29,346 nucleotides of DNA, taken from the NCBI GenBank assembly GCA_014728035.1, contig WJMJ01000135.1:1-29346 (forward strand). The letters are read 5' to 3'. A program made the translations under genes and the position numbers. Origin of the DNA: Promethearchaeota archaeon (GTDB taxonomy: Archaea > Asgardarchaeota > Thorarchaeia > Thorarchaeales > Thorarchaeaceae). The first letter of the stretch is position 1. Each line of letters begins with the position of its first letter. Under the pieces are notes generated by a model. The model was not told where the DNA came from, made no database searches, and saw only the letters and a program-made list of their open reading frames with translations. Positions 10,389-26,765 of this stretch are shown piece by piece.

Positions 10389-10404
10389 CGAATAAGTTTA
10401 TGAA
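10389..10404 (+). promoter_or_regulatory. Candidate archaeal BRE/TATA promoter of the nuoJKLMN-like operon
   Basis: CGAATAAG-TTTATGAA about 60 nt upstream of the first gene. Confidence 0.45.
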
Positions 10405-10455
10405 GCTGCACCGATGGCCGAATCATCAACAACCACCAATAAAGCCTAGGCGGGT

Positions 10456-10749
10456 TTGTCGATGATTTCAGAACCATTCGAGTTTGCACAACTTATTATC
10501 CTGGTCCTAGCTGTGGTTTTCCTTGTTATCGCAATCGAATATAGAAAATTGTCTTTTGCAATCATATCGTTTGCTGTTGGTAACGGTTTTCTAAGCCTTG
10601 CCTTCTTTGCGCTTGGTGCTCCTATTGTAGCAGCCTTCAATTTCAGCGTCTTCTCTGGCGCTTTCTTGATTGTCTTTCTAGCTACAATGAACCTTGATGC
10701 TCCTGAGGAAGAACCAGCTAATCCAGAGAAAGCGGAGGTGACTGAGTGA
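10456..10749 (+). CDS. NuoJ N-terminal-half / MbhD-like small membrane subunit
   Basis: Three TM helices. SLAFFALGAPIVAAFNFSVFSGA matches the NuoJ/MbhD 'l.A.fvA..q..Vy.GA' pattern. Start is TTG 10456 or ATG 10462. Confidence 0.75.
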   Translation: MSMISEPFEFAQLIILVLAVVFLVIAIEYRKLSFAIISFAVGNGFLSLAFFALGAPIVAAFNFSVFSGAFLIVFLATMNLDAPEEEPANPEKAEVTE

Positions 10750-11021
10750 TGAAACATAAAATCGTCGCTGCAGTACTCTCAATTGTCATAATTATCCTAG
10801 TCGGATACCAGTTGATAGATTTCTCAGTTTTTGTCATGGGAACTCCAGCAGGTGGTACCCAATCAGCCGACCTTGCAAACGCTGGGCAAGTCTTGGAAGT
10901 TCTTCGAGACTGGATCTCATCGTATCGAGCGGTTGATGTACTCATTCAAGCAACTCTTTTGCTTGCAGCAGTTATGGGTGTATCAGCTCTTGTCAGGTCG
11001 ATGTACATGGAGGAGTCTTAA
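10749..11021 (+). CDS. NuoJ C-terminal-half / MbhE-like small membrane subunit
   Basis: Two TM helices. YRAVDVLIQATLLLAAVMG resembles the MbhE/MrpA-C 'yR..DtlgE..vl..A..g' motif. TGATG overlap with the upstream gene, with a GGAGGTG RBS. Confidence 0.7.
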   Translation: MKHKIVAAVLSIVIIILVGYQLIDFSVFVMGTPAGGTQSADLANAGQVLEVLRDWISSYRAVDVLIQATLLLAAVMGVSALVRSMYMEES

Positions 11022-11023
11022 TT

Positions 11024-11353
11024 ATGTTTGACATGCTTCATATCTATCTGATTGCAGGACTTGTGCTGTATGTGTTGGGAATATACACACTTGCAAGTGC
11101 AAGGAATATGATCAAGCTTGTACTAGGAATCGAGATTCTTGTGGCAGCAGCCAACTTGAATTTCTTAGCACTTGCTGGATTCACACTTAATCCGAGTACT
11201 CTTGGACCTATTGACCCAATGGCACAGACTTTCGTTATTCTATCGATTTGTGTTGGCGGAGCAATCGCGGCGGTAGCAATGAGTCTGATTGTTAATGCTT
11301 ACCGTCATTACGGTACACTTGATGTACGAGAGCTTAGGAGGCTAAGAGGATGA
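11024..11353 (+). CDS. nuoK: NuoK/MrpC-like subunit
   Basis: RNMIKLVLGIEIL..AANLNF, AQTFVI, YRHYGTLDV..L..LRG. GGAGG RBS. Confidence 0.85.
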   Translation: MFDMLHIYLIAGLVLYVLGIYTLASARNMIKLVLGIEILVAAANLNFLALAGFTLNPSTLGPIDPMAQTFVILSICVGGAIAAVAMSLIVNAYRHYGTLDVRELRRLRG

Positions 11354-13365
11354 TTTTTCCATTAGAATTAGCTGGCTGGCTGGTATTTGTTATCCCCGTA
11401 ATTGGTGCATTACTTACTCCAATATTTGGGAAAATACACGGAACGCTACGGGATGCAATGGCAGTTATAGTTGGATTCGCGACTGCGTTCTTTGCTGTTG
11501 ATATGGGCCTCGACTTGTTGTTCAATCCACGAGTCATTGATCTAAGCCTATTGAAATGGACCGTTATCGGAAACACTGCAATTGAATTTGGTGTATTGAT
11601 AGACCCATTGAGTGTTCTACTTGCATGCATTGCAGGTGGTATTGGCTCACTGATCATTCTCTTCAGTATTGGATATATGACCGGACATGATGAAGATGGT
11701 CATGTCATTAAGGATCCAAGTCTGACACGTTATTATTTCTTCATGCAATTCTTTGTTGCTGGAATGATTCTGCTGGTCATGGCTAATAATCTCCTGATGA
11801 CCTTCATTGGTTGGGAGATTGTTGGTATGTGTAGCTATGCATTGATTGGTTTCTGGCATAATGTCAAGGAGCCTAGCCCTGTTCCAGAATATGAAACTGA
11901 GGGCGAATACAATGCTGCTTGCGGAATGAAAGCCTTCATGGTCACACGTGTAGGTGATATCGGTCTTCTTGCAGGTATTGTCATGTTATTCTTCTTGACT
12001 GGAACCTTCAACTACACAGAAATTCTTGAAACCGCACCAACATGGATTGCCGGGCTTACAAGCTTCACAGCTTGGTTATTACCTGTGATTGGAATTCTTA
12101 TTTTTGCTGGTCCTATTGGCAAAAGTGCACAATTCCCATTACACATATGGTTGCCAGAAGCGATGGCCGGACCTACTACTGTTAGCGCACTTATTCATGC
12201 TGCAGCAATGGTCAAGGCTGGAGTCTATCTGGTCGCACGAATAGTCCCTCTATTCATCGAGATCGCTATCGATGTGGCGGGATTAATTATTTTCTTCCAA
12301 GTGGTTGCTTGGATTGGTGCAATTACTGCATTCATGGCTGCAACAATGGCTATGGTTCAAGACGAGATCAAGAAAGTTCTTGCATATTCCACAATATCAC
12401 AGCTTGGTTACATGTTTATGGCTCTGGGCGCTACTGGACTTGTCGCAGAAAGCGTAGCAGCATACAGTGCTGGTGCCTTCCACTTACTTGCTCACGCAAT
12501 ATTCAAGGCGCTACTGTTTCTTGCAGCTGGTTCTGTACTTCATACAGTTCAGAGCAAGTCTATGAAGGATATGGGTGGTCTTGGCAGAGATATGAAAGTC
12601 ACTGCAGTTACCTTTACATTTGGTGCTTTGGCTTTGTCTGGAGTTCCTCCGTTTATTGGGTTCTTCTCAAAGGAACTCATCTTTGAGGCACTATGGCATG
12701 GGCATCAGTACATCCTGTTCATCATGGCTTTTGTGACCGCTATTCTAACAGCATTCTATACATTCAGGATGCTTGGAATGACCTTCTTTGGTGAGAAATC
12801 CGACCACGTAAAAGAACTTGAATCTCATGGACATCACATTCACGAATCACCCCTAGTAATGACTATCCCTCTCATGATACTTGCCTTTGCGGCTTTGATT
12901 GGAGGCTTTTTAGAAGGATACTTCTTCAATTTCTTCGTTCCAATTGGAGAGGGATTGACTCATGCTTTTGAGTGGACTCACCTACCTGTATTTCCAATTG
13001 GCATTACAACACTTTTCACAGCAGTAGTGCTAATTGTGGGAATCGTACCTTCTTACTTCATTTACTTCAAGGGTAAAGGTGACTTTTCTGGACTAAGAAA
13101 TGGCCCTCTTGGCAAATTCTTGGAGAATCGTTGGTACATCAATTCACTCTTCACTAGAATATTCGTTGATGGATATCTCTGGGCAAGTGCCGGATTGAAG
13201 AACACACTCGAAGCTGCATTACTCAAATTCAGTGGAAGTGTAGCTGAGGGAATGGACGACACTTCAAGAACATGGAGAAAGACCATGACTGGTGTGCTCA
13301 ATACAAATGTCTTGGGCATGATGATGGGAATCATCGCGTTTCTCCTGATACTCATCTTCCTATAG
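11350..13365 (+). CDS. nuoL: NuoL-like proton-translocating antiporter subunit
   Basis: DPLS, GWEIVG, KAFMVTRVGD, GKSAQFPLHIWLPEAMAGPT..SALIHAA.MVKAG, KKVLAYSTISQLGYM, HAIFKALLFL, GFFSKE, plus a C-terminal lateral helix and final TM. Confidence 0.93.
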   Translation: MIFPLELAGWLVFVIPVIGALLTPIFGKIHGTLRDAMAVIVGFATAFFAVDMGLDLLFNPRVIDLSLLKWTVIGNTAIEFGVLIDPLSVLLACIAGGIGSLIILFSIGYMTGHDEDGHVIKDPSLTRYYFFMQFFVAGMILLVMANNLLMTFIGWEIVGMCSYALIGFWHNVKEPSPVPEYETEGEYNAACGMKAFMVTRVGDIGLLAGIVMLFFLTGTFNYTEILETAPTWIAGLTSFTAWLLPVIGILIFAGPIGKSAQFPLHIWLPEAMAGPTTVSALIHAAAMVKAGVYLVARIVPLFIEIAIDVAGLIIFFQVVAWIGAITAFMAATMAMVQDEIKKVLAYSTISQLGYMFMALGATGLVAESVAAYSAGAFHLLAHAIFKALLFLAAGSVLHTVQSKSMKDMGGLGRDMKVTAVTFTFGALALSGVPPFIGFFSKELIFEALWHGHQYILFIMAFVTAILTAFYTFRMLGMTFFGEKSDHVKELESHGHHIHESPLVMTIPLMILAFAALIGGFLEGYFFNFFVPIGEGLTHAFEWTHLPVFPIGITTLFTAVVLIVGIVPSYFIYFKGKGDFSGLRNGPLGKFLENRWYINSLFTRIFVDGYLWASAGLKNTLEAALLKFSGSVAEGMDDTSRTWRKTMTGVLNTNVLGMMMGIIAFLLILIFL

Positions 13366-13378
13366 GAGGCTGAAAGAC

Positions 13379-14902
13379 ATGCAATTATTCACACTACCAA
13401 TACTCTCGGAATATCCAATGATTCTAACACTTCTCGGCCTCATAGCAGGTGGGTTACTGACCTTACTAGTGGGACAAAAATCTGAGAAGGGTGGTCGAGC
13501 TCTTGCTGCACTATCCCTACTTGGAGGCCTGTTCCTCAATGTTTTACTGGTCTTGCAGATTTGGAATGGTGGTACTGTATTCCATGACATTGTATGGCTT
13601 GGAAATGCAGCTAACCCAATAATGACTCTTGGCTTTCTAGGTGATGGTCTCAGTGCTGCTGTAGCAATTCTTATCCTTGGCCTTGGTCTATTCTCAGTTC
13701 TGTTTTCATTTGTCTATATGAAGGAACTCGAAAATCCAGGACTCTACTACTCACTAATGGTCTGGTTCATCGCAGCTATGGTTGGTGTTGTCTACGCAAC
13801 CAATCTCATGCAGTTCTTCATATTCTATGAACTGATGTTGATTCCTGCATTCATTCTTGTCTATCTTTATGGTGTATCTGAGGATGCACAAGAGAGATCA
13901 AAAAATGCTTTGCAGTTCTGGGTCTGGACAGCTTTAGGTGGTCTGATATCTCTATTTGCCACTTTTATCCTGTTTGGAGCTACTGGAACTATGGACATCG
14001 CAGCTCTATATTCTGCCCCTCTCGCAGTCACTACTGCACAGACTATAGGCATTCTCTTCTTACTTGGATTCGGAATCAAGTTGGGCCTAGTACCATTACA
14101 CGTTTGGGCCCCTCCCGTCTATAGAGAAGCTCCAATGCCTGTATTGGTCTTATTGAGTGGTGCAATGACAAAGACCGCTGCATATGGTGTAATTCGTATT
14201 GTAATTCCAATTATTTGGGCTTCAATGGAAACCTTTGCTACTGGTCTTATGGCAATTGCAATCATTACCATGTTTTACGGTGCTATGATGGCAATAGCGC
14301 AGAAAGACCTGAAGATGATGCTTGCTTACTCCAGTATTAGTCAGCTAGGTTATCTGATGTTTGGTTATTCATCCATGACTCTGATAGGTCTAAGTGGAGC
14401 AGCATTCCAATTGATAAATCATGGAATTCTAGCGAGCCTAATGTTCTTCTGTGCTGGCGCTCTTAAAATGAAGACTGGCACCTTACAGTTTGATAAACTG
14501 GGTGGCTTAGCACCAAAAATGCCAGCATTTGCAACCATTTTCATTATCGGTGCGCTTGCTCTTGCTGGAACACCTCCCCTATCTGCATTTGCTGGAGAAT
14601 GGATGATTTTTGCAGGCGCAGCACAGTTAGCAACTTCTGCTGATGCAACTCTAGTACATGTGATTCTGACTATTCTTGGTGTTGTTGCAACTGGTCTAAC
14701 CGCTGGTTATTATCTTTGGTCCGTTAGAAGGATATTCTATGGACAAGTGCCTGCGGAGCTTGAACAAGTCGATGATCCTCCAAAGACAATTCTTGGAATT
14801 GGTGCAATTCTTGCTCTGATTGTGGTTGTACTGGGTGTTTGGCCTTGGATTTTGTGGAGATTTATGAATCCCGTTCTATCGGGACTACTTGGAGGTTGGT
14901 AA
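13379..14902 (+). CDS. nuoM: NuoM-like antiporter subunit
   Basis: DGLS, FYELMLIP, IKLGLVPLHVW, KTAAYG, DLKMMLAYSSISQLG, NHG, PPLSAFAGE (the TM12 Glu typical of NuoM). Confidence 0.9.
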   Translation: MQLFTLPILSEYPMILTLLGLIAGGLLTLLVGQKSEKGGRALAALSLLGGLFLNVLLVLQIWNGGTVFHDIVWLGNAANPIMTLGFLGDGLSAAVAILILGLGLFSVLFSFVYMKELENPGLYYSLMVWFIAAMVGVVYATNLMQFFIFYELMLIPAFILVYLYGVSEDAQERSKNALQFWVWTALGGLISLFATFILFGATGTMDIAALYSAPLAVTTAQTIGILFLLGFGIKLGLVPLHVWAPPVYREAPMPVLVLLSGAMTKTAAYGVIRIVIPIIWASMETFATGLMAIAIITMFYGAMMAIAQKDLKMMLAYSSISQLGYLMFGYSSMTLIGLSGAAFQLINHGILASLMFFCAGALKMKTGTLQFDKLGGLAPKMPAFATIFIIGALALAGTPPLSAFAGEWMIFAGAAQLATSADATLVHVILTILGVVATGLTAGYYLWSVRRIFYGQVPAELEQVDDPPKTILGIGAILALIVVVLGVWPWILWRFMNPVLSGLLGGW

Positions 14903-14903
14903 A

Positions 14904-16469
14904 ATGCAATTAGATCTATTCATCATTCCTGAGCTTAGTACAGTGATGCCTGTTTTGGTTCCTGTACTCTTTGCCCTACTCACGGCAGTATTATCTGAAT
15001 TGGTCCTGTTTTTGAAGAAACAGGTACCAAGAGGTCTCCCTGATGTCATCGCAATCATCGGGTTTGCCTTTACTTTCCTCTACACATTTCTCTTGGCCTT
15101 GGAAGTTTGGCCTAATGGAGTTTCCACATGGACATTTGGAAATACTGCAGGTAGTCCTTTAGCGGTAGTTCTTGCTGCAGACATGTTCTCAGTGATGTTG
15201 ATGGGGCTATTCAGCTTCATGGGTCTTGTAGTAGCTATCTATTCAGTTGGTTATATGAAGGAGGACAGTAGACTTCCACAGTACTACGTATTACTCCTGA
15301 TTATGGTTGCTGGAATGAACGGAGTAGTCATCTCAGGTGACCTGTTTACTCTATTCTTGTTCTATGAGACCATGGGACTCTCTAGTTTCATCCTTGTTGC
15401 GTTCAAGCGTAACTGGGAGGGCATCGAAGCAGCTATCAAGTATCTAATGATGTCAGCAATCGGGTCAACTTTGATTTTATATTCGTCAAGCTTTCTCTAT
15501 GGTTTGACCGGTACACTGAACTTGGGTGCCATGTCTTTAGCACTTCAATCCAGTCCTGAAAATCCAATGATTCCGATTCTAATTGCATTACTGATTGCAG
15601 GATTTGGTGTGAAAGGAGCAATTGTTCCCTTTGCCGCATGGTTAGCAGATGCTCATCCTGCAGCTCCGTCTGGTATCAGTGCAATGCTTTCAGGGGTGGT
15701 CATCAAAGTAGGAGTTTACGGAATTATTCGTGTGAACACACTTCTGTTCTCCATGGTTTCCCAATACTTCAACTGGCCACTTCTAATTGGTATTTTTGCT
15801 TTGGTGACTATGACTGCTGGAAATCTTTGGGCTCTTACTCAGAAAGACTTGAAGAGAATGCTTGCTTACAGTTCAATTGCACAGATCGGATTCATACTCT
15901 TTGCATTTGGTACAGCAACAGAATTTGGCTATCAATCCGGAGCATTCTATATCGTGAGTCATGCTTTAACCAAAGGACTTCTGTTCCTTTGCGCAGGAGC
16001 TTTCTTGCATTCGATTGGTTCAAGGAATTTAGACGACTTAGAGGGTATAGGCAAGAAGATGCCAATTGCTGGTGCTTTTTTCGCTATAGGAATTCTCTCA
16101 CTTATGGGAATGCCACCTATGGCTGGATTCTATGCCAAGTTCCTCATTCTTGCTGCGGGTGCTGAGATAGGTCTTGTGAACGGATACTACATGGCATTCA
16201 CATTGATTGCTATTGTCAATGCAATTATCGGTCTTGGCTACTACCTGAGAATGTTAACCACTGTTTGGTTTAAGCCTGTGTCTGAAGCTTCTGAAAAAGC
16301 TCATAGATCGCACCCAGCTATTATCTTTGGAATGTTTGTTCTTGGTGTAGCTCTACTGGTCATAGGTGTCTTTCCTGGACCAATATATAGTGTTACTGAA
16401 GCAGCCGGAAGTGCTCTCTATAATTTCAGTGATTTTGTCTTACAGATTTTGAGTGCAGGAACCCCATAA
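14904..16469 (+). CDS. nuoN: NuoN/MrpD-like antiporter subunit
   Basis: GDLFTLFLFYE, EAAIKY, KGAIVPF..WL.DAHPAAP, KRMLAYSSIAQIG, PPMAGFYAKF (TM12 Lys), YYLR. GGAGGT RBS precedes ATG 14904; the ORF track starts at 14889. Confidence 0.85.
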   Translation: MQLDLFIIPELSTVMPVLVPVLFALLTAVLSELVLFLKKQVPRGLPDVIAIIGFAFTFLYTFLLALEVWPNGVSTWTFGNTAGSPLAVVLAADMFSVMLMGLFSFMGLVVAIYSVGYMKEDSRLPQYYVLLLIMVAGMNGVVISGDLFTLFLFYETMGLSSFILVAFKRNWEGIEAAIKYLMMSAIGSTLILYSSSFLYGLTGTLNLGAMSLALQSSPENPMIPILIALLIAGFGVKGAIVPFAAWLADAHPAAPSGISAMLSGVVIKVGVYGIIRVNTLLFSMVSQYFNWPLLIGIFALVTMTAGNLWALTQKDLKRMLAYSSIAQIGFILFAFGTATEFGYQSGAFYIVSHALTKGLLFLCAGAFLHSIGSRNLDDLEGIGKKMPIAGAFFAIGILSLMGMPPMAGFYAKFLILAAGAEIGLVNGYYMAFTLIAIVNAIIGLGYYLRMLTTVWFKPVSEASEKAHRSHPAIIFGMFVLGVALLVIGVFPGPIYSVTEAAGSALYNFSDFVLQILSAGTP

Positions 16470-16492
16470 CGGGTTCTGCTCTCTTCTTTTTT
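16451..16492 (+). terminator. Hairpin plus U-tract ending the nuo-like operon
   Basis: GAGTGCAGGAACCC-cataac-GGGTTCTGCTCTC spanning the stop codon, followed by ttctttttt. Confidence 0.7.
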
Positions 16493-16637: not shown

Positions 16638-17405
16638 ATGATTGTAATCTTTCTAGTTTTATTCACAATTGCATTCATCTGCGAATATGCAGCAGCAACA
16701 CTAGGTATGGGTTACGGTACAACACTCGCTCCAATACTGTTGATTGCAGGGTATGCTCCTTTGGTTCTAGTACCTGTCATCCTCTTCAGTCAGTTCTTTG
16801 CAGGCTTCATAGCTGCAGCATTTCATCATAAATTCGAGAATATGGATCTGAAGAAAAAGGAGGAACGAACTGCTTTCTACATTTTCGCATTGACTGGAAT
16901 AGTTGGTGTGATTGTTTCTATTCTTGTCAGTATCTCTCTACCATCTCTCTTTGTCAAAGTATACATTGCTCTGACTGTCACTATTGTTGGCATTCTTACA
17001 CTAATAGATGGTGACCGTCAATTTTCGTTTTCACAAAAGAAATTGGTTGGAATGGGAATTGTTGCTGCATTCAACAAAGGGATGTCTGGCGGTGGTTATG
17101 GTCCTATAACAACTGCAGGTCAGATGATATGTGGAATATCTCCAAGAGCAGCAGTAGCTATAACTGCACTAGTAGAGGGAATAATCTGTATTATAGGAGT
17201 AATTCTCTATTATTTATTAGCAGCTCCTGTAGACTTATTGTTGTTAATCAGTATAACAGCTGGTGGAATTGTAGCAGCTCCACTATCAGCATTTACTACC
17301 AAGAAATTAGAACAAGAATCTGTAAAGAAATTAGTTGCAGTTTCAATAATTTTGATTGGTTTACTCAGTCTATTCCTTGTGATTTTGAATCCTTCAGGTG
17401 CTTAG
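16638..17405 (+). CDS. TauE/SafE (TSUP) family sulfur-oxyanion transporter
   Basis: About 8 TM helices with two repeats carrying LGMGYGT..P and SGGGYGP motifs. GGAGG RBS. Confidence 0.88.
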   Translation: MIVIFLVLFTIAFICEYAAATLGMGYGTTLAPILLIAGYAPLVLVPVILFSQFFAGFIAAAFHHKFENMDLKKKEERTAFYIFALTGIVGVIVSILVSISLPSLFVKVYIALTVTIVGILTLIDGDRQFSFSQKKLVGMGIVAAFNKGMSGGGYGPITTAGQMICGISPRAAVAITALVEGIICIIGVILYYLLAAPVDLLLLISITAGGIVAAPLSAFTTKKLEQESVKKLVAVSIILIGLLSLFLVILNPSGA

Positions 17406-17453
17406 ATGACAATTTGAACTTCATCGATAATTGAACAACAGGTGACAAATCTT

Positions 17454-18599
17454 ATGATTACTCCCCATGGTGGAAAATTGGTGGACCGAAAGGCTACCAA
17501 CACAGAACGAGAAAAGACATTGAAAGAGTTTGAATCGTATCATACTCTGACATTAGATAAAGAAGATGCTCAAGAGATTGACAATATTGCTTATGGTGTA
17601 TTTAGTCCACTCGAAGGGTTTCTGACACAGAAAGATTTTGAATCAGTCTTAGAAAGTGGAAGGTTAGCTGACAACACACCTTGGACCATTCCTATCGTCT
17701 TAGATGTTGAAAAACGTGAATTGGGTGATGCTAAACAAGGTGACACTCTTGGACTGGTCTATAATGACACACCTACTGCAATTATTGAGGTAGAAGACAT
17801 TTACGAATTTGATAAAATTCAATTCAAGACCAAGATTTTTGCTACTACTGATGAATCACACCCTGGTGTGGCAAAGGTAGATGGAATGAGGCCATTGTTG
17901 GTTGGGGGAAAAATTACTCTACTCAATGATATTGGGAACCCATATCCTGACCATACACTATCTCCAAAACAAACACGAGCACTTTTTGAACAGAAAGGGT
18001 GGAAGTCAGTTGTTGCTTTTCAGACTCGTAACACACCTCATTTGGGTCATGAATATGTTCAGAAGACCGCATTATCTATCACTGATGGACTTTTCATCAA
18101 TCCCTTGATTGGAAAGAAAAAGACAGGGGACTTCAGAGACGAAGTAATTCTTGAATCATACAAGGCCTTGATGGATCATTATTATCCTGAGAAACATGCT
18201 AGCCTGGCAGTACTTCATACGGAAATGCGATACGGTGGTCCAAAAGAAGCAGTACATCACGCCATAATGCGTCAAAATTTTGGTTGTACTCATTTCATTG
18301 TTGGTCGTGATCATGCTGGAGTAGGAGATTTTTATGGTCCATTTGATGCTCATGAGATATTCAATGAGTATCCTGATTTGGAAATCACTCCAATCTTCTT
18401 CAGGTCTTTCTTCTTCTGTAGAAAATGCAATAGCATAGCAAACGATAAAGTATGTCCTCATTCTGGTGATGATATAATTATCTTTGCCGGGCGTAGAATC
18501 CGTGCTATGCTTAACGAAGGGGAAGTCCCTCCTGCAGACATGATGCGCCCAGAAGTAGCTGATACCATTTTGAGTTATGACAAACCATTTGTCGAATAG
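17454..18599 (+). CDS. sat: Sulfate adenylyltransferase (ATP sulfurylase, Sat type)
   Basis: PHGGKLVD, FSPLEGF, WTIPIVL, FQTRN.PHLGHE, MRYGGPKEA, HFIVGRDHAGVG, Zn motif CRKC..CPH, MRPEV. AGGTGA RBS precedes ATG 17454; the ORF track starts at 17442. Confidence 0.97.
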   Translation: MITPHGGKLVDRKATNTEREKTLKEFESYHTLTLDKEDAQEIDNIAYGVFSPLEGFLTQKDFESVLESGRLADNTPWTIPIVLDVEKRELGDAKQGDTLGLVYNDTPTAIIEVEDIYEFDKIQFKTKIFATTDESHPGVAKVDGMRPLLVGGKITLLNDIGNPYPDHTLSPKQTRALFEQKGWKSVVAFQTRNTPHLGHEYVQKTALSITDGLFINPLIGKKKTGDFRDEVILESYKALMDHYYPEKHASLAVLHTEMRYGGPKEAVHHAIMRQNFGCTHFIVGRDHAGVGDFYGPFDAHEIFNEYPDLEITPIFFRSFFFCRKCNSIANDKVCPHSGDDIIIFAGRRIRAMLNEGEVPPADMMRPEVADTILSYDKPFVE

Positions 18600-18610
18600 A
18601 GGTATCAGAA

Positions 18611-19993
18611 TTGAAACGGTCTGTAGTACTTGGTTGGGATGGAGTTCCTCCTGGTTTGGTCTTTAATGACTTAATCGACCGATTGCCGAATCTACGAGAA
18701 ATTCTCAAATCAAGTACATATGGTCCATTACAAAGTGTGTCACCCCCGATTACAGTTCCAGCTTGGATGAGTATGATGACAGGTTGTGATCCTGGACAGC
18801 TTGGGCTCTATGGATTCAGACACAGAACTCCAGGTGATTACAAAGAAATTTGGATACCTGATTCAACTCATATCAAGCAACCTAAGGTCTGGGATATTGT
18901 TGGTGAACATGGTGGAAAGGTTATTGTCATAGGCGTACCTCCCACATATCCGCCCTCAGAAGTGGATGGCGTATTAATATCTGGATTTCTAGCGCCTGAT
19001 ACTGAACGGCCATACACCTATCCCCCTGAAATTTCTGAAAAGATTAGTGAGATTGTGGGTGACTATACGTTAGATGTCTTCTACAGAACTGAAGACAAAG
19101 AAACACTTAGTGCCGAGCTCTTTGAGATGACCAAGAAAAGGCACCGAGTAGCAAAACATCTTCTCCAAAATGAAGAATGGAATCTATTTGTGATGATGGA
19201 AGTTGGTCCTGATAGATTACATCATGGCTTCTGGAGATACTATGATGTTACACACTCGAGGCATATCGAGTCTGAAAAGTATCGTTCGGTTTTCATTAGA
19301 TACTACGAGTTACTTGATAAGCAACTGGGTGAAATACTTGAACTTCTTCCTGATGATTGCGTTCTTATTCTGGCTTCAGACCACGGAGCGAAGGAACGTG
19401 AAGGAGTTTTTTGTATTAACCAATGGCTTTACAATCAGGGATTACTTGCCCTGAAGTCAGAGCCTTCATCTCCCACTTCTTTTGAAGACTTGGACATCGA
19501 CTGGAAACACACGAAAGCATGGGCATGGGGTGGATATTATGCGCGTATTTTCATCAATCTTGAAGGATACGAGCGTGAGGGTTGTGTGCCTCATGATGAA
19601 TACGAGCAATTTCGAGACACACTCGCTCAGATGCTGTTATCGATACGTGGTCCTAATGGTGAATCGTGGGAAAACATCGTGGATAAACCTGAGGATATCT
19701 ATCATGAATGTAACGGGGAATATCCTGACCTAATGTTATACTTAGATGATTTACATTGGCGAGCATCTGGCGGATTGGGGTATGATTCCGTCTATTTCTA
19801 TGAGAGTGACAATGGTCCTGATGATGCGATACATGACTGGAATGGCATCTATGTCATACATTTTCCAGAACAACAACATTCCGCAAAAAGAGAACAAAGC
19901 ATACTCGATATTGCTCCTACTCTTTTGCAATATATGGGGCTGAAAGTCCCATCCTATATGAAAGGAAAAACAATACGGAGTAAACACAAATGA
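18611..19993 (+). CDS. Alkaline-phosphatase-superfamily (NPP/phosphodiesterase-like, COG3379-type) cytoplasmic enzyme
   Basis: GWDG (metal Asp), PPITVPAW..MMTG..PG (Thr nucleophile), DRLHH, SDHG, DAIH..G, DIAPT. No signal peptide. TTG start with GAGGT RBS. Confidence 0.9.
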   Translation: MKRSVVLGWDGVPPGLVFNDLIDRLPNLREILKSSTYGPLQSVSPPITVPAWMSMMTGCDPGQLGLYGFRHRTPGDYKEIWIPDSTHIKQPKVWDIVGEHGGKVIVIGVPPTYPPSEVDGVLISGFLAPDTERPYTYPPEISEKISEIVGDYTLDVFYRTEDKETLSAELFEMTKKRHRVAKHLLQNEEWNLFVMMEVGPDRLHHGFWRYYDVTHSRHIESEKYRSVFIRYYELLDKQLGEILELLPDDCVLILASDHGAKEREGVFCINQWLYNQGLLALKSEPSSPTSFEDLDIDWKHTKAWAWGGYYARIFINLEGYEREGCVPHDEYEQFRDTLAQMLLSIRGPNGESWENIVDKPEDIYHECNGEYPDLMLYLDDLHWRASGGLGYDSVYFYESDNGPDDAIHDWNGIYVIHFPEQQHSAKREQSILDIAPTLLQYMGLKVPSYMKGKTIRSKHK

Positions 19994-20514
19994 AACGAAA
20001 TGGATTTTGCATCTGGCTTACTGGACTTTCAGGAGCTGGAAAAACAACAATATCTAAGAAACTAATTGAATACTTGAAAGAAGACCGCTTCATTGAAGCT
20101 ATGGATGGCGATGAAATCAGAAAAGGTCTGAGTCGAGACCTCGGATTTTCAAAAGCTGATCGAAATGAGCACAACAGACGTGTAATATTTTGTACAAAGC
20201 TACTTGTTAGAAATGGTGTAATTGTTAATGTAGCTTTAATCTCACCCTATCGAGAAACACGTGCATACGCAAAAGAGGAGATTCCTAATATGATAGAGGT
20301 TTTTGTCAAAGCACCACTTGAAACTTGTATCGAACGTGATCCCAAGGGCCTCTATGAGAAAGCGTTAGCGGGTGAGATTAAACAGTTTACTGGAATTGAT
20401 GACCCATATGAAGAACCTCTCGAACCTGACCTTATTGTAGAAACACACAAGGAAACTGTAGAGGAATCAGTCCAGAAGATTCTTGACAAAGCTAAAGAGC
20501 TAGGATATCTATAG
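19990..20514 (+). CDS. cysC: Adenylyl-sulfate kinase
   Basis: WLTGLSGAGKTT, DGDEIR, DLGFSKADR, ISPY, RDPKGLY, FTGIDDPYEEP. ATGA overlap with the AlkP gene. Confidence 0.97.
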   Translation: MKRNGFCIWLTGLSGAGKTTISKKLIEYLKEDRFIEAMDGDEIRKGLSRDLGFSKADRNEHNRRVIFCTKLLVRNGVIVNVALISPYRETRAYAKEEIPNMIEVFVKAPLETCIERDPKGLYEKALAGEIKQFTGIDDPYEEPLEPDLIVETHKETVEESVQKILDKAKELGYL

Positions 20515-20537
20515 TTAGATAACAGGATGATGAGATA

Positions 20538-20774
20538 ATGCCAAAAACCAAGTCGCGGAAGGGGAAATTCACGTCCGTATCAATTCCCATTCCCCTTTTC
20601 AGAAAAATTGAAGTGCATATTGAAGATACTGGATTCACATCAGTTTCTAGTTATGTGACATATATCCTAAGAGAGATTGTTGCTGAATCTGCTTCAGATA
20701 CATCTGAAACGTCCGCCAAAGCAGACCAAGAAAAGGTCAAAGAACGTTTGAGGGCATTGGGTTATCTCGATTAA
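20538..20774 (+). CDS. CopG/ribbon-helix-helix protein with C-terminal KERLRALGYLD tail
   Basis: TSVSIP (beta strand), helix, GFTSVSSYVTYILRE (second helix), then a low-complexity linker and the tail. Confidence 0.85.
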   Translation: MPKTKSRKGKFTSVSIPIPLFRKIEVHIEDTGFTSVSSYVTYILREIVAESASDTSETSAKADQEKVKERLRALGYLD

Positions 20775-20845
20775 TCAAATTCAGATACATCTCTTAGGCA
20801 CATTATCCTGAATGGACTCGAACAAAACGACTAATTGTAATATAT

Positions 20846-20883
20846 GAGATGCGGAAAAGTCCGTATTCTCCCTTCTTCTTTTT
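20846..20883 (+). terminator. Hairpin plus pyrimidine/U-tract ending the sulfate operon
   Basis: GAGATGCGGA-aaag-TCCGTATTCTC followed by ccttcttcttttt. Confidence 0.6.
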
Positions 20884-20973
20884 GGCGTATAACCTGATGC
20901 AATATCTAAACGATTCATTCTTATTCGGTTTAATACTCCAAGCTCAATAGCAATATACTTTGTAGGTGTTTAA

Positions 20974-21807
20974 ATGACCAAAGCAATTGATTTGCTGAAT
21001 CTTCTTCGTGAAACTGTCGTACCTGGTGGAATAATACTTCGAGCATTACAGGGGAAATTAGATAATCGACCAAAAGAATCGGATTTACCGGATGATCTAG
21101 CTGATGACAAATCCACCGCTCATACAATTGGGGATGATTTAGTTCAGGAGGTAGCGCTTCAGATTCTTTCGAGTCACAGTACTGATTTTCGGATAAATGC
21201 CGAAGAAGATACTCCTCGAGTAAACACGTTTAGTGGAACTGATTCGTCATTTTGTTATCATTTAGACCCTCTTGATGGAACTCTCTCATTTATCCAAGGA
21301 AGTGATGGTTATGCTGTTGGAGCAGCATTTTCCAGAAACAAGCAATTTGAAGCCTCTGCAATTTATTTTCCTGCAAGAGATAAAGTCTACTTAGCCCAGA
21401 GAGGAAAAGGGATTCGAGTAGAAACACAGTTTAGACAAGAACTACCCTTCGATAGAATTAATCCAACCTCCGGGAAGTATATTCAACGGCGTGCGGAGAA
21501 ATACGTACCTGTAGTTGAATCCATGAATTTCACACATCTGGATACAATGGGTGCTCATCATGGGATGGTGTGTATCGCTCGTGGAGAAGCAAGAGTTTTG
21601 ATGTACGGTAGAGCGAGTCCACATGATTTTGGTATACCTCAAGTAGTTGTTGAAGAATCTGGAGGGATATGTACGGACTCTGAAGGCAATCCTGTGACTT
21701 ATGAGAAAGGCTTTCCAAGAGTTCCCCTCTTCATGGCATTCTCCGATATCGAAACAAAGGAGGCCTTTTTTGAGAGTGATGTCTATGCCTCATTAGACAC
21801 GAAATGA
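20974..21807 (+). CDS. Inositol monophosphatase superfamily protein, possibly a CysQ-like 3'(2'),5'-bisphosphate nucleotidase
   Basis: T.GD..VQ, AEE, LDPLDGT, HD..PQVVVEESGG..TD..G. It has its own TTTAATA box (20929-20935) and an AGGTG RBS. Confidence 0.85.
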   Translation: MTKAIDLLNLLRETVVPGGIILRALQGKLDNRPKESDLPDDLADDKSTAHTIGDDLVQEVALQILSSHSTDFRINAEEDTPRVNTFSGTDSSFCYHLDPLDGTLSFIQGSDGYAVGAAFSRNKQFEASAIYFPARDKVYLAQRGKGIRVETQFRQELPFDRINPTSGKYIQRRAEKYVPVVESMNFTHLDTMGAHHGMVCIARGEARVLMYGRASPHDFGIPQVVVEESGGICTDSEGNPVTYEKGFPRVPLFMAFSDIETKEAFFESDVYASLDTK

Positions 21808-21844: not shown

Positions 21845-22885
21845 TTAATTTCGTAGCCGGTCTCGTAGAATCTTTATTGTGATTGACACAAATAGAATTG
21901 GCCCCGTTATCATCATAGCTAGATACACCAATGTTCCAATAACGATAGCTAAATCTGCGACAAAGCACCAAATTATTGCTAGACTTGCAAACGTCCCAAA
22001 CAATAGCCAAACAAATCGCATCTTGATTGGTTCTTTATTCTCAAATGAAACATCATCTTTAGGTCCTATGTATATCATAAGGAATATCAACAAGTAGAAT
22101 CCAACTGTAAGAAGAATTGTTTCTAGTCCTGGTATTCTATCTGGAAATATAACAAACCATAGAAATACATAGAGGAATGCCAAATACAGGCTTGCAAAAG
22201 CAATTCCTTTCTTCCCAATTCTTAGTTGTTGAATATTCAAGCCATTAGGTGTTCTTTTTGCAAGATATAGTGCAGATAATATCAAGATTAGATTTCCAAT
22301 AATCGCTATCAATACCGAAAAGAGATCTGCTAGGAGCCCAGATACAAGAAATGTTGCTCCAGCAAAAAAGACGAGAATAAAGATAATCTTATTTCTCCTA
22401 TTCTGTACTACAAACTTCCAATGGCTTGGAATGATGCTTGAAAAAGTATGACCCCTATTTGTATTTAATGAACTGATCTCAAAGATGAAAATTGGTATAA
22501 TAAATGAAAAAATTGCGTGCCAAAAGAGTGCTATGATGAGAAATTCTCCAGTCGCGAATCCCAGAAATGTGCCAAATTGCGGGCCGTCTTCCGCCATATA
22601 TCCTGCCCAAATGACCTTGGTCATCCAAGACTCATATAATCCATAGATAATCCCCCATAAGTAGAGCTGGCTGGGGGATGTCCGTTGAAGTTTAATCGCC
22701 AGATTGAGAAGTATTAGTCCATGAAACCAGTAAAGTGGGAGCACAACAAAAATTCCCCAGGGATCCAGAAACCATAATGGAGCTGAGCCTGAGAAAACTT
22801 CAGCAAACATAATCGAAAGAATACCAAAGTAAAAAATACTCCAGTAATTCGTTTCTTTCTGGGACGTTTCCACCATCTCAATCAA
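21845..22885 (-). CDS. Uncharacterised polytopic membrane protein (about 10 TM)
   Basis: Long hydrophobic ORF with intramembrane polar motifs AEVFSGS, YGLYES..K, WHAIFS. Confidence 0.75.
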   Translation of the reverse strand: MIEMVETSQKETNYWSIFYFGILSIMFAEVFSGSAPLWFLDPWGIFVVLPLYWFHGLILLNLAIKLQRTSPSQLYLWGIIYGLYESWMTKVIWAGYMAEDGPQFGTFLGFATGEFLIIALFWHAIFSFIIPIFIFEISSLNTNRGHTFSSIIPSHWKFVVQNRRNKIIFILVFFAGATFLVSGLLADLFSVLIAIIGNLILILSALYLAKRTPNGLNIQQLRIGKKGIAFASLYLAFLYVFLWFVIFPDRIPGLETILLTVGFYLLIFLMIYIGPKDDVSFENKEPIKMRFVWLLFGTFASLAIIWCFVADLAIVIGTLVYLAMMITGPILFVSITIKILRDRLRN

Positions 22886-22995
22886 ATACAGTTTGAAAAA
22901 ACAGCTATTTATTTTTCATCTACAAATATCGTGGTTTATCATGTTCACCAAACTTTTTCAAAAGGGTTGAGCTGCTATGTTCTTGAGGTAGCATA

Positions 22996-23283
22996 GTGTA
23001 CTACGTCTATATAATCGAGACCGAAGATGAAACGTATTACACTGGAATAACGAATAATCTTCTTCGTAGAATGAAAGAGCATACATCAGGGTCTGGTCGT
23101 GGAGCAGCTTATCTAAGAATGCATAAGCCGAAATATCTGGTATATCTTGCAGAATGTGAAACAAGGAGTGAAGCACAAAAATTGGAGTATAAAATAAAAA
23201 AAGATCAGAAGCTCAAAATGAGCCTAATTGGCCCTAGGCGAGACCTCCGCGAAGTCATTGAAACTGAGGAGAGCTATCTTTGA
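22996..23283 (+). CDS. Stand-alone GIY-YIG nuclease family protein (UPF0213/YazA-like)
   Basis: YVYII..YYTGITNNL.RR..EH..G.GA.Y...KP..LVY...SEA.KLE..IKK. Confidence 0.9.
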   Translation: MYYVYIIETEDETYYTGITNNLLRRMKEHTSGSGRGAAYLRMHKPKYLVYLAECETRSEAQKLEYKIKKDQKLKMSLIGPRRDLREVIETEESYL

Positions 23284-23284
23284 A

Positions 23285-25969
23285 TCAGATCAAAGAGTTG
23301 GTTGTTCTTTCCACCTGTTTTCTTAGTGGATCCCCCAACTCATCTAGTAATGTAGATAATTTATCCAACCAGTGAATACTAGCCCTTCTGCATGCAATGA
23401 AGGGCTTTGATGTACCCATTGCATTTCCTATGTCTTCTAACTGATCCAGTGCCAATGAAAGCCAGTCCAAATATCCATTGTGTTTACCAACTGCGTAGAT
23501 TCCCTTTTGTGAAAAATACCCCTTGCCTGCTAAGAAGTCACATAGAAAATCATAGGATGCTCTGAGATGGCGTATATCGTCTCTTATTCGTACTGCTGGA
23601 ATTTTATGCGTCAAACGGAATGGAAGTTTTTCATCATTTCTGAGGAATCTCTGATAGGTCGCCAAGACCTTTAGAATTGAATATGCACATTTTACCTCTC
23701 TTACAAGTATGTCTAGAAAACCAGGTCGATTCCATGTCCAGGGATTGGAGAATTTATGGGTTTTAAAATCATAGTCTGTTGTCACTTGCTGATATTTTGA
23801 TAGGGCCTGAAGCCAATTTACGCTCCAACAAAATCTTGTTGGCTTTCCATTTTCTATAATTCCTGATCGTGTAGATAGGCATCTCGTGATTTCTTCAAAG
23901 GTTATCTGACGAACGACAAAGTCGTGCATTGCAGAGCTGAGTGGTGATAGTCTTTGAGAATTTTCGACTAAGGCGAGACCTAAGGCATTGACAGGGCTTC
24001 TGATTAGTTGATTATCTCGGGTCATTACAATATAGCAGTCGTGTTCTTGTTTATAGTCTGCAATAGGCGTACTCCGCCCTATTATCTTTCTACTCTCTTC
24101 GTTTAGTCTGACTGAAATACTAGAATGTTGAAATGGCTCTCGTGACCATATCAACTCAGCTTTCCCATGGAATTCTTCATCTTCAAGACTTAGGAATGTG
24201 ACTCTATTGTGAAGGATCTCCCATAGATAGTGATAGTTCTGATGTGTTAACACCTCCAAGAATACCTTTTCTCTTAGTGGATGGTGGAATAAGAATGGGA
24301 TTTTATAATCCTTAGAATGAGCTGAAACATTTGCAATTTCCTCTGCCAATCCTCCAGAAATAATCCATGCACCACCTCCCGTTACAACCCAATCAATGAC
24401 TCCTTTTTTAGTTAGGTCCGTTACAGGCATTATCTCTGCTAGTGTTTTACTCCCAGTTATTTGAGGGATATCTAGTACAGGGCGTTCAAGTTTTTGAGAA
24501 TGTTTTCTGATCGGTTGGTCTTCTTTTGTTCCGATTAGTTTAGTCCGGATTGTTTCTCCTATTTTTTCTTCTAATCTTTCAATTATCCCTTTTGTTGTCA
24601 AGGTATTCCCATAGTTTATCCTTTCAAGACCGGAACTGGAATGAACTTGTGGGAGTACATTTACTCGTATGAGAAGATTTCGTAACTCTTCATTTTTATC
24701 TAGGTCACTTGGATCTTCGATTCTTTTCATAATCTCTTGGATAGTGATTTCTTCTCTTGCATAGCTATCGATAGCCATGACTGTGTTGCTGACATCCAGA
24801 AGCTCCAAGTGAATTCCATCGATCTCCCCATCAAAGATGTCCTCCAAGAGCAGTCGGTGGTTTCTCTCAAGTTTTTCTTTTAGCCAATTTCGCTCTAACA
24901 ACATTATCCAACTATTACCAGAGTCTATGATTTGTTTTCCTTCTGGGTCCACAATAGAATATCCTGAAAGACAAAGAATTTTTTCAAAGCTATTTTCTGA
25001 ACTTCTCAGAAAACGTGCCGTAAAATCTGATTTGCCCCCCTTCGAGCCCTTCTTCTCCGAGAAATGAATCTGCGGAGTGTCTATTGAATCCCAAAGTATC
25101 TCATAAACAAACTCGCCTTCGATTTCCACATCTTCATGTTTAAGAATTTTCAAATCGTATTGCTTATCGACCAGTCTTATGAGGTTCATTATTGACTCTC
25201 TTGAAAAGAGTGTGGTTACATTTTCTGAAGTACTTGAAAGTCGTATCAAATCACTTCCAAATGATTTGACTTGTTCACCACGTAGATCCGCTACCAATAA
25301 CATATTCCACAGGTTGTAAGTTCTTATTCCCAGAAATGCCAATATTTGCTTGTACCTATTTATGCTGGAATGGTGTTTCAGTGCATACTCTAAAATTTCC
25401 GTTTCTTTGTCAGTAAGCGGATCATCAAACTCGAGATGCTCAAGTATTTCATCAATATCCACTTCATGACGTTCTTCTAAGAGATTCTCTCTTGCTCGTA
25501 TCTCCTGTCTGATTTCCGTTTCTATAGAGATAATGAATCTACGAAGTAAAACCAATTCCCAAAGATTCATTCCCGTAGTAGCAATTATTTGTTCAACATC
25601 TTCTCTTTTGGAGATGCCAATCAAAGAGTTGAGATTTCGTGGACGGTTTAGAAGTTGGTTTTCTAGTTCCTTCATATCCCGTTTCCATGATATCCGAATC
25701 AGAATCGATGTCACGACCCATAAAAAAATGTCAAAAACTCCAATTGCAATAAGCGGATAGATATCAATTGTGGCACCCCATGGAGATGGGAAAACCAACT
25801 CATAGTCAAGAACCACGAACACTATATTTTGCTCAGTATTTGTTGTAATGGTTAACAGTGTGATTACAATACCAATCAAGAATGTTATAGCTACAGAAAT
25901 GAACTTCTTTCGCACATAGTTAATTCGTTCTCGAAGTTTTGAATTATATCCCATAAGATTGTACTCCAT
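23285..25969 (-). CDS. Large hypothetical protein (~894 aa) with two N-terminal TM helices
   Basis: Uninterrupted 2.7-kb ORF. ATG 25969 lies 4 nt after the Nudix stop, whereas the ORF-track start at 26074 overlaps the Nudix gene. Two hydrophobic segments precede a long soluble region. Confidence 0.8.
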   Translation of the reverse strand: MEYNLMGYNSKLRERINYVRKKFISVAITFLIGIVITLLTITTNTEQNIVFVVLDYELVFPSPWGATIDIYPLIAIGVFDIFLWVVTSILIRISWKRDMKELENQLLNRPRNLNSLIGISKREDVEQIIATTGMNLWELVLLRRFIISIETEIRQEIRARENLLEERHEVDIDEILEHLEFDDPLTDKETEILEYALKHHSSINRYKQILAFLGIRTYNLWNMLLVADLRGEQVKSFGSDLIRLSSTSENVTTLFSRESIMNLIRLVDKQYDLKILKHEDVEIEGEFVYEILWDSIDTPQIHFSEKKGSKGGKSDFTARFLRSSENSFEKILCLSGYSIVDPEGKQIIDSGNSWIMLLERNWLKEKLERNHRLLLEDIFDGEIDGIHLELLDVSNTVMAIDSYAREEITIQEIMKRIEDPSDLDKNEELRNLLIRVNVLPQVHSSSGLERINYGNTLTTKGIIERLEEKIGETIRTKLIGTKEDQPIRKHSQKLERPVLDIPQITGSKTLAEIMPVTDLTKKGVIDWVVTGGGAWIISGGLAEEIANVSAHSKDYKIPFLFHHPLREKVFLEVLTHQNYHYLWEILHNRVTFLSLEDEEFHGKAELIWSREPFQHSSISVRLNEESRKIIGRSTPIADYKQEHDCYIVMTRDNQLIRSPVNALGLALVENSQRLSPLSSAMHDFVVRQITFEEITRCLSTRSGIIENGKPTRFCWSVNWLQALSKYQQVTTDYDFKTHKFSNPWTWNRPGFLDILVREVKCAYSILKVLATYQRFLRNDEKLPFRLTHKIPAVRIRDDIRHLRASYDFLCDFLAGKGYFSQKGIYAVGKHNGYLDWLSLALDQLEDIGNAMGTSKPFIACRRASIHWLDKLSTLLDELGDPLRKQVERTTNSLI

Positions 25970-25973
25970 TGAA

Positions 25974-26765
25974 TTATTTTGAAACGAGATATTTTCGTAA
26001 TAGTGATATTGCCAATACCATGTGGTCAGTAGCATCAATATCTTCAGCAATTGGGAGCCCGTTGTTTTCCACAATACTTGATAGTGTACCTTCGTCAGTC
26101 GAAGGGAAAAAGAGGTAGGAATGCTCTTTTCCTCTTATTGCAACATCTGTAGATGCAACGTTGACTGGTGCATACATGACACATGTTGTATCATGATTGC
26201 TTCCCCATACAACACCTAGAAGTCTGAATTTTTCAATTGAATAATGCTTATCTCTTTGTAGCGAGGTTTCTTCGGTGATCTCTCTAGCTGATGTCTCGAA
26301 AAGACATTCTGGCAATGCTTTCCATTCGTTATGATGATTCTCTACAGCAGCTAGTTTGGGATCAATAAATCCTCCCCCTACTGCGTGTAACATACCTCCT
26401 TGGTCAGAACCCTGTCGTACACCAAGTACGATTTTGTTATCGGTTGTGACCATCAGAGACGTGACACTGGTAGGATTTGGATATTCAATAGCTGATTGAT
26501 ATTGTTGATGTCGTAGAATGAAATGCCACTTGTAGCTACATTTACTGAGCTCAATCGATACTGTTTGGTCTTCTTTGACCACTCTTTCGAATCTCCAAAG
26601 CGGTCCATTATACACTCCTTGAGGTCTCTTCTCCCATTCCTCGTTTACTATTTCTATTTGTGTCTGTGTAGGATTCCATGAGGAAGGAACCACTTTGATG
26701 TTCACTTGGTTCTTTTTCCATTCTCCGTGAACGAGTACTTTTCGGTATGATGATTGAGCAGACAT
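25974..26765 (-). CDS. Nudix hydrolase, NUDT22-like subfamily
   Basis: YNGPLWRF, SYK, P..V..L..T.D..IVL..R, GGGFIDP, split Nudix box AREITEETSL, LLGVV. Confidence 0.82.
   Translation of the reverse strand: MSAQSSYRKVLVHGEWKKNQVNIKVVPSSWNPTQTQIEIVNEEWEKRPQGVYNGPLWRFERVVKEDQTVSIELSKCSYKWHFILRHQQYQSAIEYPNPTSVTSLMVTTDNKIVLGVRQGSDQGGMLHAVGGGFIDPKLAAVENHHNEWKALPECLFETSAREITEETSLQRDKHYSIEKFRLLGVVWGSNHDTTCVMYAPVNVASTDVAIRGKEHSYLFFPSTDEGTLSSIVENNGLPIAEDIDATDHMVLAISLLRKYLVSK

Follow-up and report, generated by a model that had tools for sequence, protein, structure and literature searches.

The stretch analysed here, called the window throughout, is 29,346 nucleotides (nt) long and comprises positions 1 to 29,346, forward strand, of contig WJMJ01000135.1 from a Promethearchaeota archaeon of the family Thorarchaeaceae (GenBank assembly GCA_014728035.1). 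It carries an operon for sulfate activation in which the genes for ATP sulfurylase (Sat) and for CysC, the kinase of adenosine 5'-phosphosulfate (APS), flank a gene for an enzyme of the alkaline phosphatase (AlkP) superfamily. The operon is an Asgard (Thorarchaeota) version of a sulfate-activation cassette already published for the Thermococcales. The AlkP enzyme is best read, with a probability of about 0.5, as the cassette's pyrophosphatase and a helper of Sat. An original prediction, made from the letters of the window alone, had instead proposed a new type of sulfotransferase that draws on 3'-phosphoadenosine 5'-phosphosulfate (PAPS). The genes in question are these:

16638-17405, + strand: TauE/TSUP-family permease, 255 amino acids (aa), the operon's first gene (PF01925, E 6e-24)
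17442-18599, + strand: Sat, ATP sulfurylase of the homo-oligomeric type, 385 aa (PF14306 and PF01747, 1e-87; NF003166, 507 bits against a cut-off of 387)
18611-19993, + strand: AlkP-superfamily enzyme of the nucleotide pyrophosphatase/phosphodiesterase (NPP) type, protein P0001, 460 aa, TTG start (PF01663, 7.5e-43)
19990-20514, + strand: CysC, APS kinase, 174 aa (PF01583, 9e-57; TIGR00455, 219.7 bits against a cut-off of 138.7)
20538-20774, + strand: ribbon-helix-helix (RHH)-like, CopG-type protein, 78 aa (strand-helix-helix topology in its AlphaFold2 (AF2) model; no Pfam match)
20974-21807, + strand: phosphatase of the inositol monophosphatase (IMPase) family, 277 aa, a separate transcription unit (PF00459, 5e-25)

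Sat converts sulfate and ATP into APS and inorganic pyrophosphate (PPi), a strongly unfavourable reaction, and CysC converts APS and ATP into PAPS. The TauE protein may act as the sulfate importer. Profile matches at these positions bear out the gene content and coordinates of the original prediction, and the four-nucleotide overlap that it described, an ATGA shared by the AlkP stop and the cysC start, is present. The promoter and terminator with which it bounded the unit fared less evenly: a TTTAATTATA box about 60 nt 5' of tauE is a candidate promoter seen by eye only, and a T-tract 3' of the RHH gene, within the 200-nt spacer before the IMPase-family gene, is a candidate terminator, also by eye, while a sigma-70 promoter scan, a model not applicable to archaea, gave nothing above chance. 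Profile searches of the window's contig returned no PAPS_reduct, Sulfotransfer_1/3 or NIR_SIR match, in agreement with the earlier statement that CysH, sulfite reductase and classical sulfotransferases are missing from the window.

The closest relatives of the AlkP protein come from Thorarchaeota and other Asgard archaea. The protein is 78% identical to that of the BAJATHOR metagenome-assembled genome (MAG), where the locus is identical, and in the closest relative (locus L011) the IMPase-family gene is placed as in the window. The putative TTG start at 18611 is preceded by a GAGGT box (18587-18613). In the database this protein is recorded with 468 aa (P0002), its start having been called eight codons further upstream.

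Active site and fold of the AlkP enzyme

The protein matches PF01663 with 147.9 bits (cut-off 23) over residues 5-404. This is its only Pfam match, and the sulfotransferase profiles Sulfotransfer_1, Sulfotransfer_2, Sulfotransfer_3 and Stf0 gave none. The motifs and the intact bimetal site with a Thr nucleophile that had been noted earlier are all there: WDG at residues 8-10, PPITVPAW at 45-52, DRLHH at 201-205, SDHG at 256-259, and H408. In an alignment of 20 homologs, D10, T48, D201, H205, D257, H258 and H408 are invariant; Thr48 and the six Asp/His ligands make up the nucleophile and two-metal site of the NPP type, and Thr48 aligns with the nucleophile Thr of the Xac NPP and of the phosphonoacetate hydrolase PhnA. 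The N-terminus opens straight on the first core strand, and no signal peptide is seen by inspection, as the original prediction had it.

The AF2 model has a mean confidence score (pLDDT) of 92, and its closest folds are ENPP1, ENPP3, ENPP5, ENPP6, Xac NPP and PhnA (Foldseek E 2e-17 to ENPP1; TM scores of 0.55-0.69 to solved NPPs). Identity to the solved NPP and PhnA structures is 11-17%, and a sequence search for a close solved relative found none. Among the orthologs, identity is 45-50% across archaea and bacteria. Five basic residues in the active site (R70, H71, R159, K261 and R384) are specific to the orthologs and would suit a small polyanionic substrate. The active site is a standard one for phosphoryl transfer, which favours a pyrophosphatase.

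The cassette across archaea and bacteria

Neighbouring genes were identified by tblastn in the best 80 loci of at least 574 AlkP relatives, found in a scan of species-representative genomes of archaea and bacteria. The AlkP gene is tightly linked to sat and cysC in both domains. Its neighbour is the 78-aa RHH protein in 71 of the 80 loci, CysC in 68 and Sat in 63, the RHH protein being the most constant. The co-occurrence that the original prediction had proposed to check is therefore very strong, and the want of linkage that would have told against it is clearly not what is found. The commonest order is RHH-Sat-[DHH]-AlkP-CysC, followed by TauE or by TviC/TviB-like UDP-sugar genes, with TauE in or adjoining the cassette in 11/80 loci. 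The DHH gene occurs in 17 loci of the full cassette set, and its product matches the phosphatase of 3'-phosphoadenosine 5'-phosphate (PAP) of Methanothermococcus thermolithotrophicus (8a8k; E 8e-31 with a single sequence, 4e-93 with a profile).

In at least 120 protein clusters, a count to be read as a lower bound, an ATP sulfurylase (PUA_2 and PF01747) is fused N-terminally to the AlkP enzyme in a protein of about 863 aa, and such Sat-AlkP fusions fit the removal of a by-product of Sat. One protein joins the AlkP enzyme to CysC. The named members of the Sat-AlkP fusions (P0123-P0242; for example, L093:10001-12619) are Anaerolineae. Fragments of cysC and a 75-aa gene lie 3' of the fusion in L093, and one Sat-AlkP form of 1173 aa has an additional C-terminal stretch.

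Sugar genes are found around the cassette in particular lineages. TviC/TviB-like UDP-sugar genes lie 3' of it in Aminicenantes, and nucleotidyltransferase (NTP-transferase) genes and glycosyltransferase genes of families GT2 and GT4 surround it in several archaea. The neighbouring epimerase might have pointed to UDP-sulfoquinovose made by way of sulfite, but this was rejected: the protein looks TviC-like and reaches 57 bits with the UDP-sulfoquinovose synthase model, whose cut-off is 575. Longer AlkP paralogs adjoin sugar-1-phosphate nucleotidyltransferases, which also release PPi. These paralogs and classical sulfotransferases do not exclude one another (6 vs 5 loci).

The phosphatase gene that follows the operon had been labelled CysQ/IMPase-like. 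The family assignment stands with the PF00459 match. The CysQ identity is only putative: with the equivalog model TIGR01331, whose cut-off is 228.8 bits, the protein reaches 56.6 bits, close to its scores with the HisN and FBPase/IMPase models. A tblastn search of the window's own genome found no homolog of the DHH PAP phosphatase (pApase) and no long AlkP paralog. The IMPase-family enzyme is probably the PAP phosphatase here, in place of the cassette's usual DHH enzyme. The AlkP enzyme itself was rejected for this task, the cassette having its own DHH enzyme (the match to 8a8k) or, in the window, the IMPase-family gene.

The 78-aa protein is probably the regulator of the operon. Its AF2 model has a strand-helix-helix topology with a further C-terminal helix, and all of its top Foldseek matches are RHH proteins (NikR, Arc, ParD and MazE6; root-mean-square deviation 1.0-2.6 Å). 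The topology fits the earlier RHH label, though no Pfam model matches and the Foldseek matches are non-significant (E >=0.9). After an acidic linker the protein ends in a tail of the form RLxxLGY(I/L)(D/E), whose residues L74, G75 and Y76 do not vary among 30 sequences. The same LGY tail ends some AlkP paralogs of 534-562 aa (L030:16149-17813, L061:2929-4533 and L085:7243-8931), and 24 of 59 cassette CysC proteins end in ELGYL. The tail may be a docking element common to proteins of the cassette. When a complex of the AlkP enzyme and the 78-aa protein was predicted, one control scored as high as the pair. A reading of the tail as a proteasomal HbYX motif was rejected because its spacing to the C-terminus varies.

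PAPS use and the role of the AlkP enzyme

The window's own genome is 97.9% complete, and a profile search of it gave no NIR_SIR match, in keeping with the original prediction of a sulfation operon without a reductive branch. The one strong PAPS_reduct match is a 648-aa protein fused to a PUA domain and unlinked to the operon; a second match, on a different contig, is weak and barely exceeds the Pfam cut-off. Because NIR_SIR is missing and the sole strong PAPS_reduct match is PUA-fused, the evidence supports an operon that makes PAPS for sulfation, not reduction. The 648-aa protein (genome G000, contig C25:152647-154593; L001:715-2661) is unlikely to be a CysH, given the PUA fusion, the lack of linkage to the operon and a genome without sulfite reductase. 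Similar PUA/PAPS_reduct-like proteins of about 650 aa, unlinked to sat and cysC, also occur in the cassette-bearing archaea L094 and L095.

The same genome encodes four intact classical sulfotransferases (Sulfotransfer_1/3; 343, 276, 475 and 239 aa). Their genes are on contigs C94 and C70 and have GT4 and GT9 glycosyltransferase genes beside them. PAPS use in this organism is therefore explained without a new enzyme, and the product is probably a sulfated glycan. The original prediction had named two linked findings that would together count against it: a reductase or classical sulfotransferase elsewhere in the genome that explains PAPS use, and homologs without linkage to sat and cysC. The first is what this genome shows, the second clearly is not.

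Across genomes the picture is different. In an evenly drawn sample of 91 Asgard genomes, each at least 85% complete, 27 have an AlkP ortholog (25 with CysC, the other two with contig-end problems). Sulfotransfer_3 is found in 12 of these 27, as against 17 of the 17 genomes that have CysC without an AlkP ortholog. The remaining 15 AlkP-positive genomes, which belong to eight families and include one closed, 100%-complete genome, lack Sulfotransfer_1, Sulfotransfer_3 and NIR_SIR, compared with 0/17 of the AlkP-negative PAPS makers. The contrast gives a Fisher p of 8e-5 by genome with kinship ignored, and of 0.09 by family (6/11 vs 0/5). The anti-correlation with classical sulfotransferases that the original prediction had suggested looking for thus appears in Asgard archaea, where genomes with the AlkP enzyme lack them more often than expected. 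In Asgard families without AlkP (genomes G059, G071, G082, G091, G098, G117, G124, G130 and G142), CysC is part of a frame of about 580 aa of the fused Sat-CysC type, the form that prevails among the 17 genomes with CysC but no AlkP ortholog. Sulfotransfer_3 copies are numerous in these AlkP-free families, up to 9 per genome, and sulfation is organised differently there than in AlkP-bearing members of the phylum.

Sulfotransfer_1 or Sulfotransfer_3 occurs in 21 of the 50 cassette genomes that were searched. Profile searches of the other 29 found none of Sulfotransfer_1, Sulfotransfer_2, Sulfotransfer_3 and Stf0, although the absence of Sulfotransfer_2 and Stf0 is weak evidence, these models matching 0 control genomes too. 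NIR_SIR is present in 6 of the 29, mostly sulfate-reducing Archaeoglobaceae, which leaves 23/50 without a known PAPS consumer. Many of the genomes compared are MAGs, and related genomes are not independent.

If the AlkP enzyme is a pyrophosphatase, the pathway would run as follows. The TauE-type permease would supply sulfate and Sat would make APS and PPi. By analogy with the activity listed for TON_1705 of Thermococcus onnurineus, the AlkP enzyme would hydrolyse the PPi at its Thr/two-metal site and so pull the unfavourable Sat reaction. CysC would then convert APS to PAPS, to be consumed by the four classical sulfotransferases on other contigs, and the IMPase-family enzyme would clear PAP, standing in for the DHH pApase, under probable regulation of the operon by the RHH protein. 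In T. onnurineus, the genes TON_1704-1707 encode APS kinase, pyrophosphatase, PAP phosphatase and ATP sulfurylase (PMC4463584), and for TON_1705 as an inorganic pyrophosphatase that paper refers to the characterisation in Lee et al. 2009 (J Bacteriol 191:3415). For its action on PPi, Table 1 of PMC9653972 gives a Km of 18.8 uM, a kcat of 2.1/s, a kcat/Km of 1.1e5 per M per s and a pH optimum of 9.5. As far as these sources report, PPi hydrolysis by TON_1705 is the only measured activity, and it counts for a pyrophosphatase, as do the long paralogs beside PPi-releasing sugar nucleotidyltransferases.

Several points weigh against this assignment. Enzymes of the AlkP superfamily are promiscuous. 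The window's genome has a family I pyrophosphatase and an H+-pyrophosphatase, so the idea that a dedicated pyrophosphatase is needed for want of another was rejected, and redundancy with canonical pyrophosphatases speaks against a Sat helper. Where the cassette is split, the enzyme often parts from Sat: RHH-[DHH]-AlkP-CysC stays together in nine loci that lack Sat, and in seven others RHH-AlkP is found with UDP-sugar or sugar-nucleotide genes, Sat-CysC lying elsewhere. The 15 Asgard genomes and 23 cassette genomes without a known consumer belong here as well. The AlkP enzyme would be the counterpart of TON_1705 and of PYCH_17550 of Pyrococcus yayanosii by cassette position, Pfam family name and shared taxa (Archaeoglobaceae, DHVE2). 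According to the table in PMC9653972, the kcat of TON_1705 is also some 10,000-fold below that of the canonical pyrophosphatase of the same organism (3e4/s). The missing consumers and the split cassettes fit an enzyme that uses PAPS at least as well as they fit a helper of Sat.

Such a PAPS-using enzyme is the chief competitor, a tentative and less probable one. The AlkP enzyme, possibly with the RHH-tail protein, would be a sulfotransferase of new fold or another transferase that releases PAP. A pair of the NPP-fold enzyme and its RHH-tail partner could conceivably move the sulfuryl or the 3'-phospho-AMP moiety of PAPS to an acceptor with release of PAP, and this more specific version is equally tentative. 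Candidate acceptors are a nucleotide sugar, a glycan and the tail's own invariant Tyr (in LGY), and the PPi hydrolysis in the literature would then be incidental turnover of an isosteric anhydride. The cassette's own PAP phosphatase (the DHH enzyme, or the IMPase-family enzyme here) implies a PAP-forming step, and no other recurrent neighbour could supply one: in a census of 139 further neighbouring open reading frames (ORFs), no sulfotransferase family was among the 25 commonest and none was recurrent. The consumer counts in Asgard and cassette genomes point the same way, as do the Archaeoglobaceae that retain RHH-DHH-AlkP-CysC without Sat and the AlkP paralogs that sit within glycan clusters. 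The authors of the P. yayanosii study identify no sulfotransferase or sulfite reductase in that genome, and the role of the pathway was unclear to them (PMC8268124).

On the other side, identity of 45-50% between archaea and bacteria is easier to reconcile with one small substrate common to all than with acceptors that differ by lineage. Classical sulfotransferases coexist with the enzyme in 12 of the 27 AlkP-positive Asgard genomes, this one included, and other sulfotransferase families could exist in genomes scored as lacking them. No two-metal, Thr-nucleophile member of the AlkP superfamily is known to carry out sulfuryl transfer natively, which counts against a PAPS user, as does the PPi hydrolysis listed for TON_1705. 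The split cassettes were rejected as a discriminator, the missing CysC or Sat being nearly always elsewhere in the genome. The original prediction of a new sulfotransferase is only partly supported. It keeps its linkage to sat and cysC and the absence of sulfotransferases in part of the Asgard genomes, and is weakened by a cassette that was already published and whose positional counterpart in Thermococcus is listed as a pyrophosphatase.

Most of the probability beyond these two readings goes to phosphosulfate hydrolysis or other nucleotide roles. It is improbable that the enzyme's target is the phosphosulfate bond in APS or PAPS, hydrolysed by attack at phosphorus as in NPPs, so that the enzyme would be a safety valve or sensor that keeps the pool of activated sulfate in check, perhaps controlled by the RHH-tail protein. 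In favour of this, the structures nearest to the model are nucleotide pyrophosphatases, which act on anhydrides of this kind, the gene is closely tied to Sat and CysC alike, and the tail of its conserved RHH partner is common to AlkP paralogs. The result would, however, be a futile cycle inside a strongly conserved, horizontally spread cassette, with a dedicated PAP phosphatase left unexplained unless PAPS were cleaved to PAP. Least likely of all is a nucleotide or nucleotide-sugar phosphodiesterase or phosphatase of a glycan pathway, or a second PAP phosphatase, with a merely regulatory linkage to sat and cysC: UDP-sugar, NTP-transferase, GT2 and GT4 genes do surround the cassette in several lineages and NPP3, which binds UDP-GlcNAc, is among the matches of the AlkP model (PDB 6f30), but the sugar genes are lineage-specific where the Sat/CysC linkage is general, the PAP phosphatase role is already taken by the DHH or IMPase genes, and all five of the five genomes with AlkP away from Sat and CysC still carry a Sat-CysC pair elsewhere.

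With the pyrophosphatase as the preferred assignment, the fitting annotation for the operon is "sulfate activation with NPP-type pyrophosphatase" and not "new sulfotransferase". There is a recognised gap in that Pyrococcus and about half of the genomes examined have no known PAPS user and yet carry a PAP phosphatase of their own. The 15/27 vs 0/17 contrast in Asgard archaea makes this gap testable at the bench on one soluble protein of 460 aa, and the Sat fusions and the conserved RHH-tail partner strengthen the case for doing so. If the AlkP enzyme did turn out to use PAPS, an unrecognised enzyme class would lie behind sulfation in many uncultured archaea and bacteria, and as a sulfotransferase it would found a catalytic class of its own, with members across the archaea and several bacterial phyla.

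Directly 5' of the sulfate-activation operon (10389-16492) are genes for antiporter subunits like NuoL/M/N or MrpA/D (671, 507 and 526 aa) together with small subunits. L011, the closest relative, has this antiporter operon too, and a hairpin and T-tract close it in the window (16458-16487). The 3' region (21845-26074, - strand; 22996-23283, + strand) encodes proteins of 346, 95 and 929 aa. The 346-aa protein has no Pfam match, though its L011 ortholog is listed as PF27245 AF_0692; the 95-aa protein is a GIY-YIG nuclease domain; and the 929-aa protein has no Pfam matches.

Comparison with known systems

The AlkP enzyme shares its fold, Thr nucleophile and six metal ligands with the NPP/ENPP enzymes (Xac NPP 2gsn, ENPP1 4gtw/6wet) and with PhnA. 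It differs from them in being cytoplasmic, in its large insertions and in invariant Arg, Lys and Trp residues specific to the family. NPPs produce PPi from ATP and do not hydrolyse PPi. The group transferases of the superfamily, EptA, LtaS and PigN, work in the membrane and transfer phospho-alcohol groups donated by lipids; EptA and LtaS act through a covalent Thr intermediate, the analogy on which the original prediction drew. The classical P-loop sulfotransferases have a fold unrelated to that of AlkP.

In some eukaryotes, ATP sulfurylase is fused to an inorganic pyrophosphatase, an arrangement reportedly described by Patron et al. in 2008. As in the Sat-AlkP fusions of about 863 aa, Sat is there physically coupled to the removal of its by-product; the eukaryotic partner is a family I pyrophosphatase, in contrast to the AlkP-superfamily enzyme of the prokaryotic fusions. 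The sulfate assimilation operon of M. thermolithotrophicus likewise has a stand-alone Sat and a CysC, and its DHH-type PAP phosphatase matches that of related cassettes. It differs in having a PAPS reductase and working with Fsr, and no gene of alkaline phosphatase fold is mentioned for it (PMC10322725).

The nearest known system is that of the Thermococcales. In P. yayanosii the cassette is PYCH_17520-17570. CopG, ATP sulfurylase, DHH pApase, a "type I phosphodiesterase/nucleotide pyrophosphatase" and APS kinase are the products of PYCH_17520-17560, TauE lies alongside, and PPi removal is the role that the authors tentatively suggest for the PF01663 protein (Jin et al. 2021, PMC8268124). A DHH-profile search found no structure of the P. 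yayanosii pApase in the copy of the Protein Data Bank (PDB) used. The window differs in having TauE first and the RHH gene last instead of first, and in its Asgard host with classical sulfotransferases elsewhere in the genome. All of the Thermococcales-type gene set is in the window except the DHH pApase, which is replaced by the IMPase-family gene that follows the operon. Both cassettes share CopG/RHH, ATP sulfurylase, the PF01663-type enzyme, APS kinase and TauE, and the user of PAPS is likewise puzzling in the Thermococcales.

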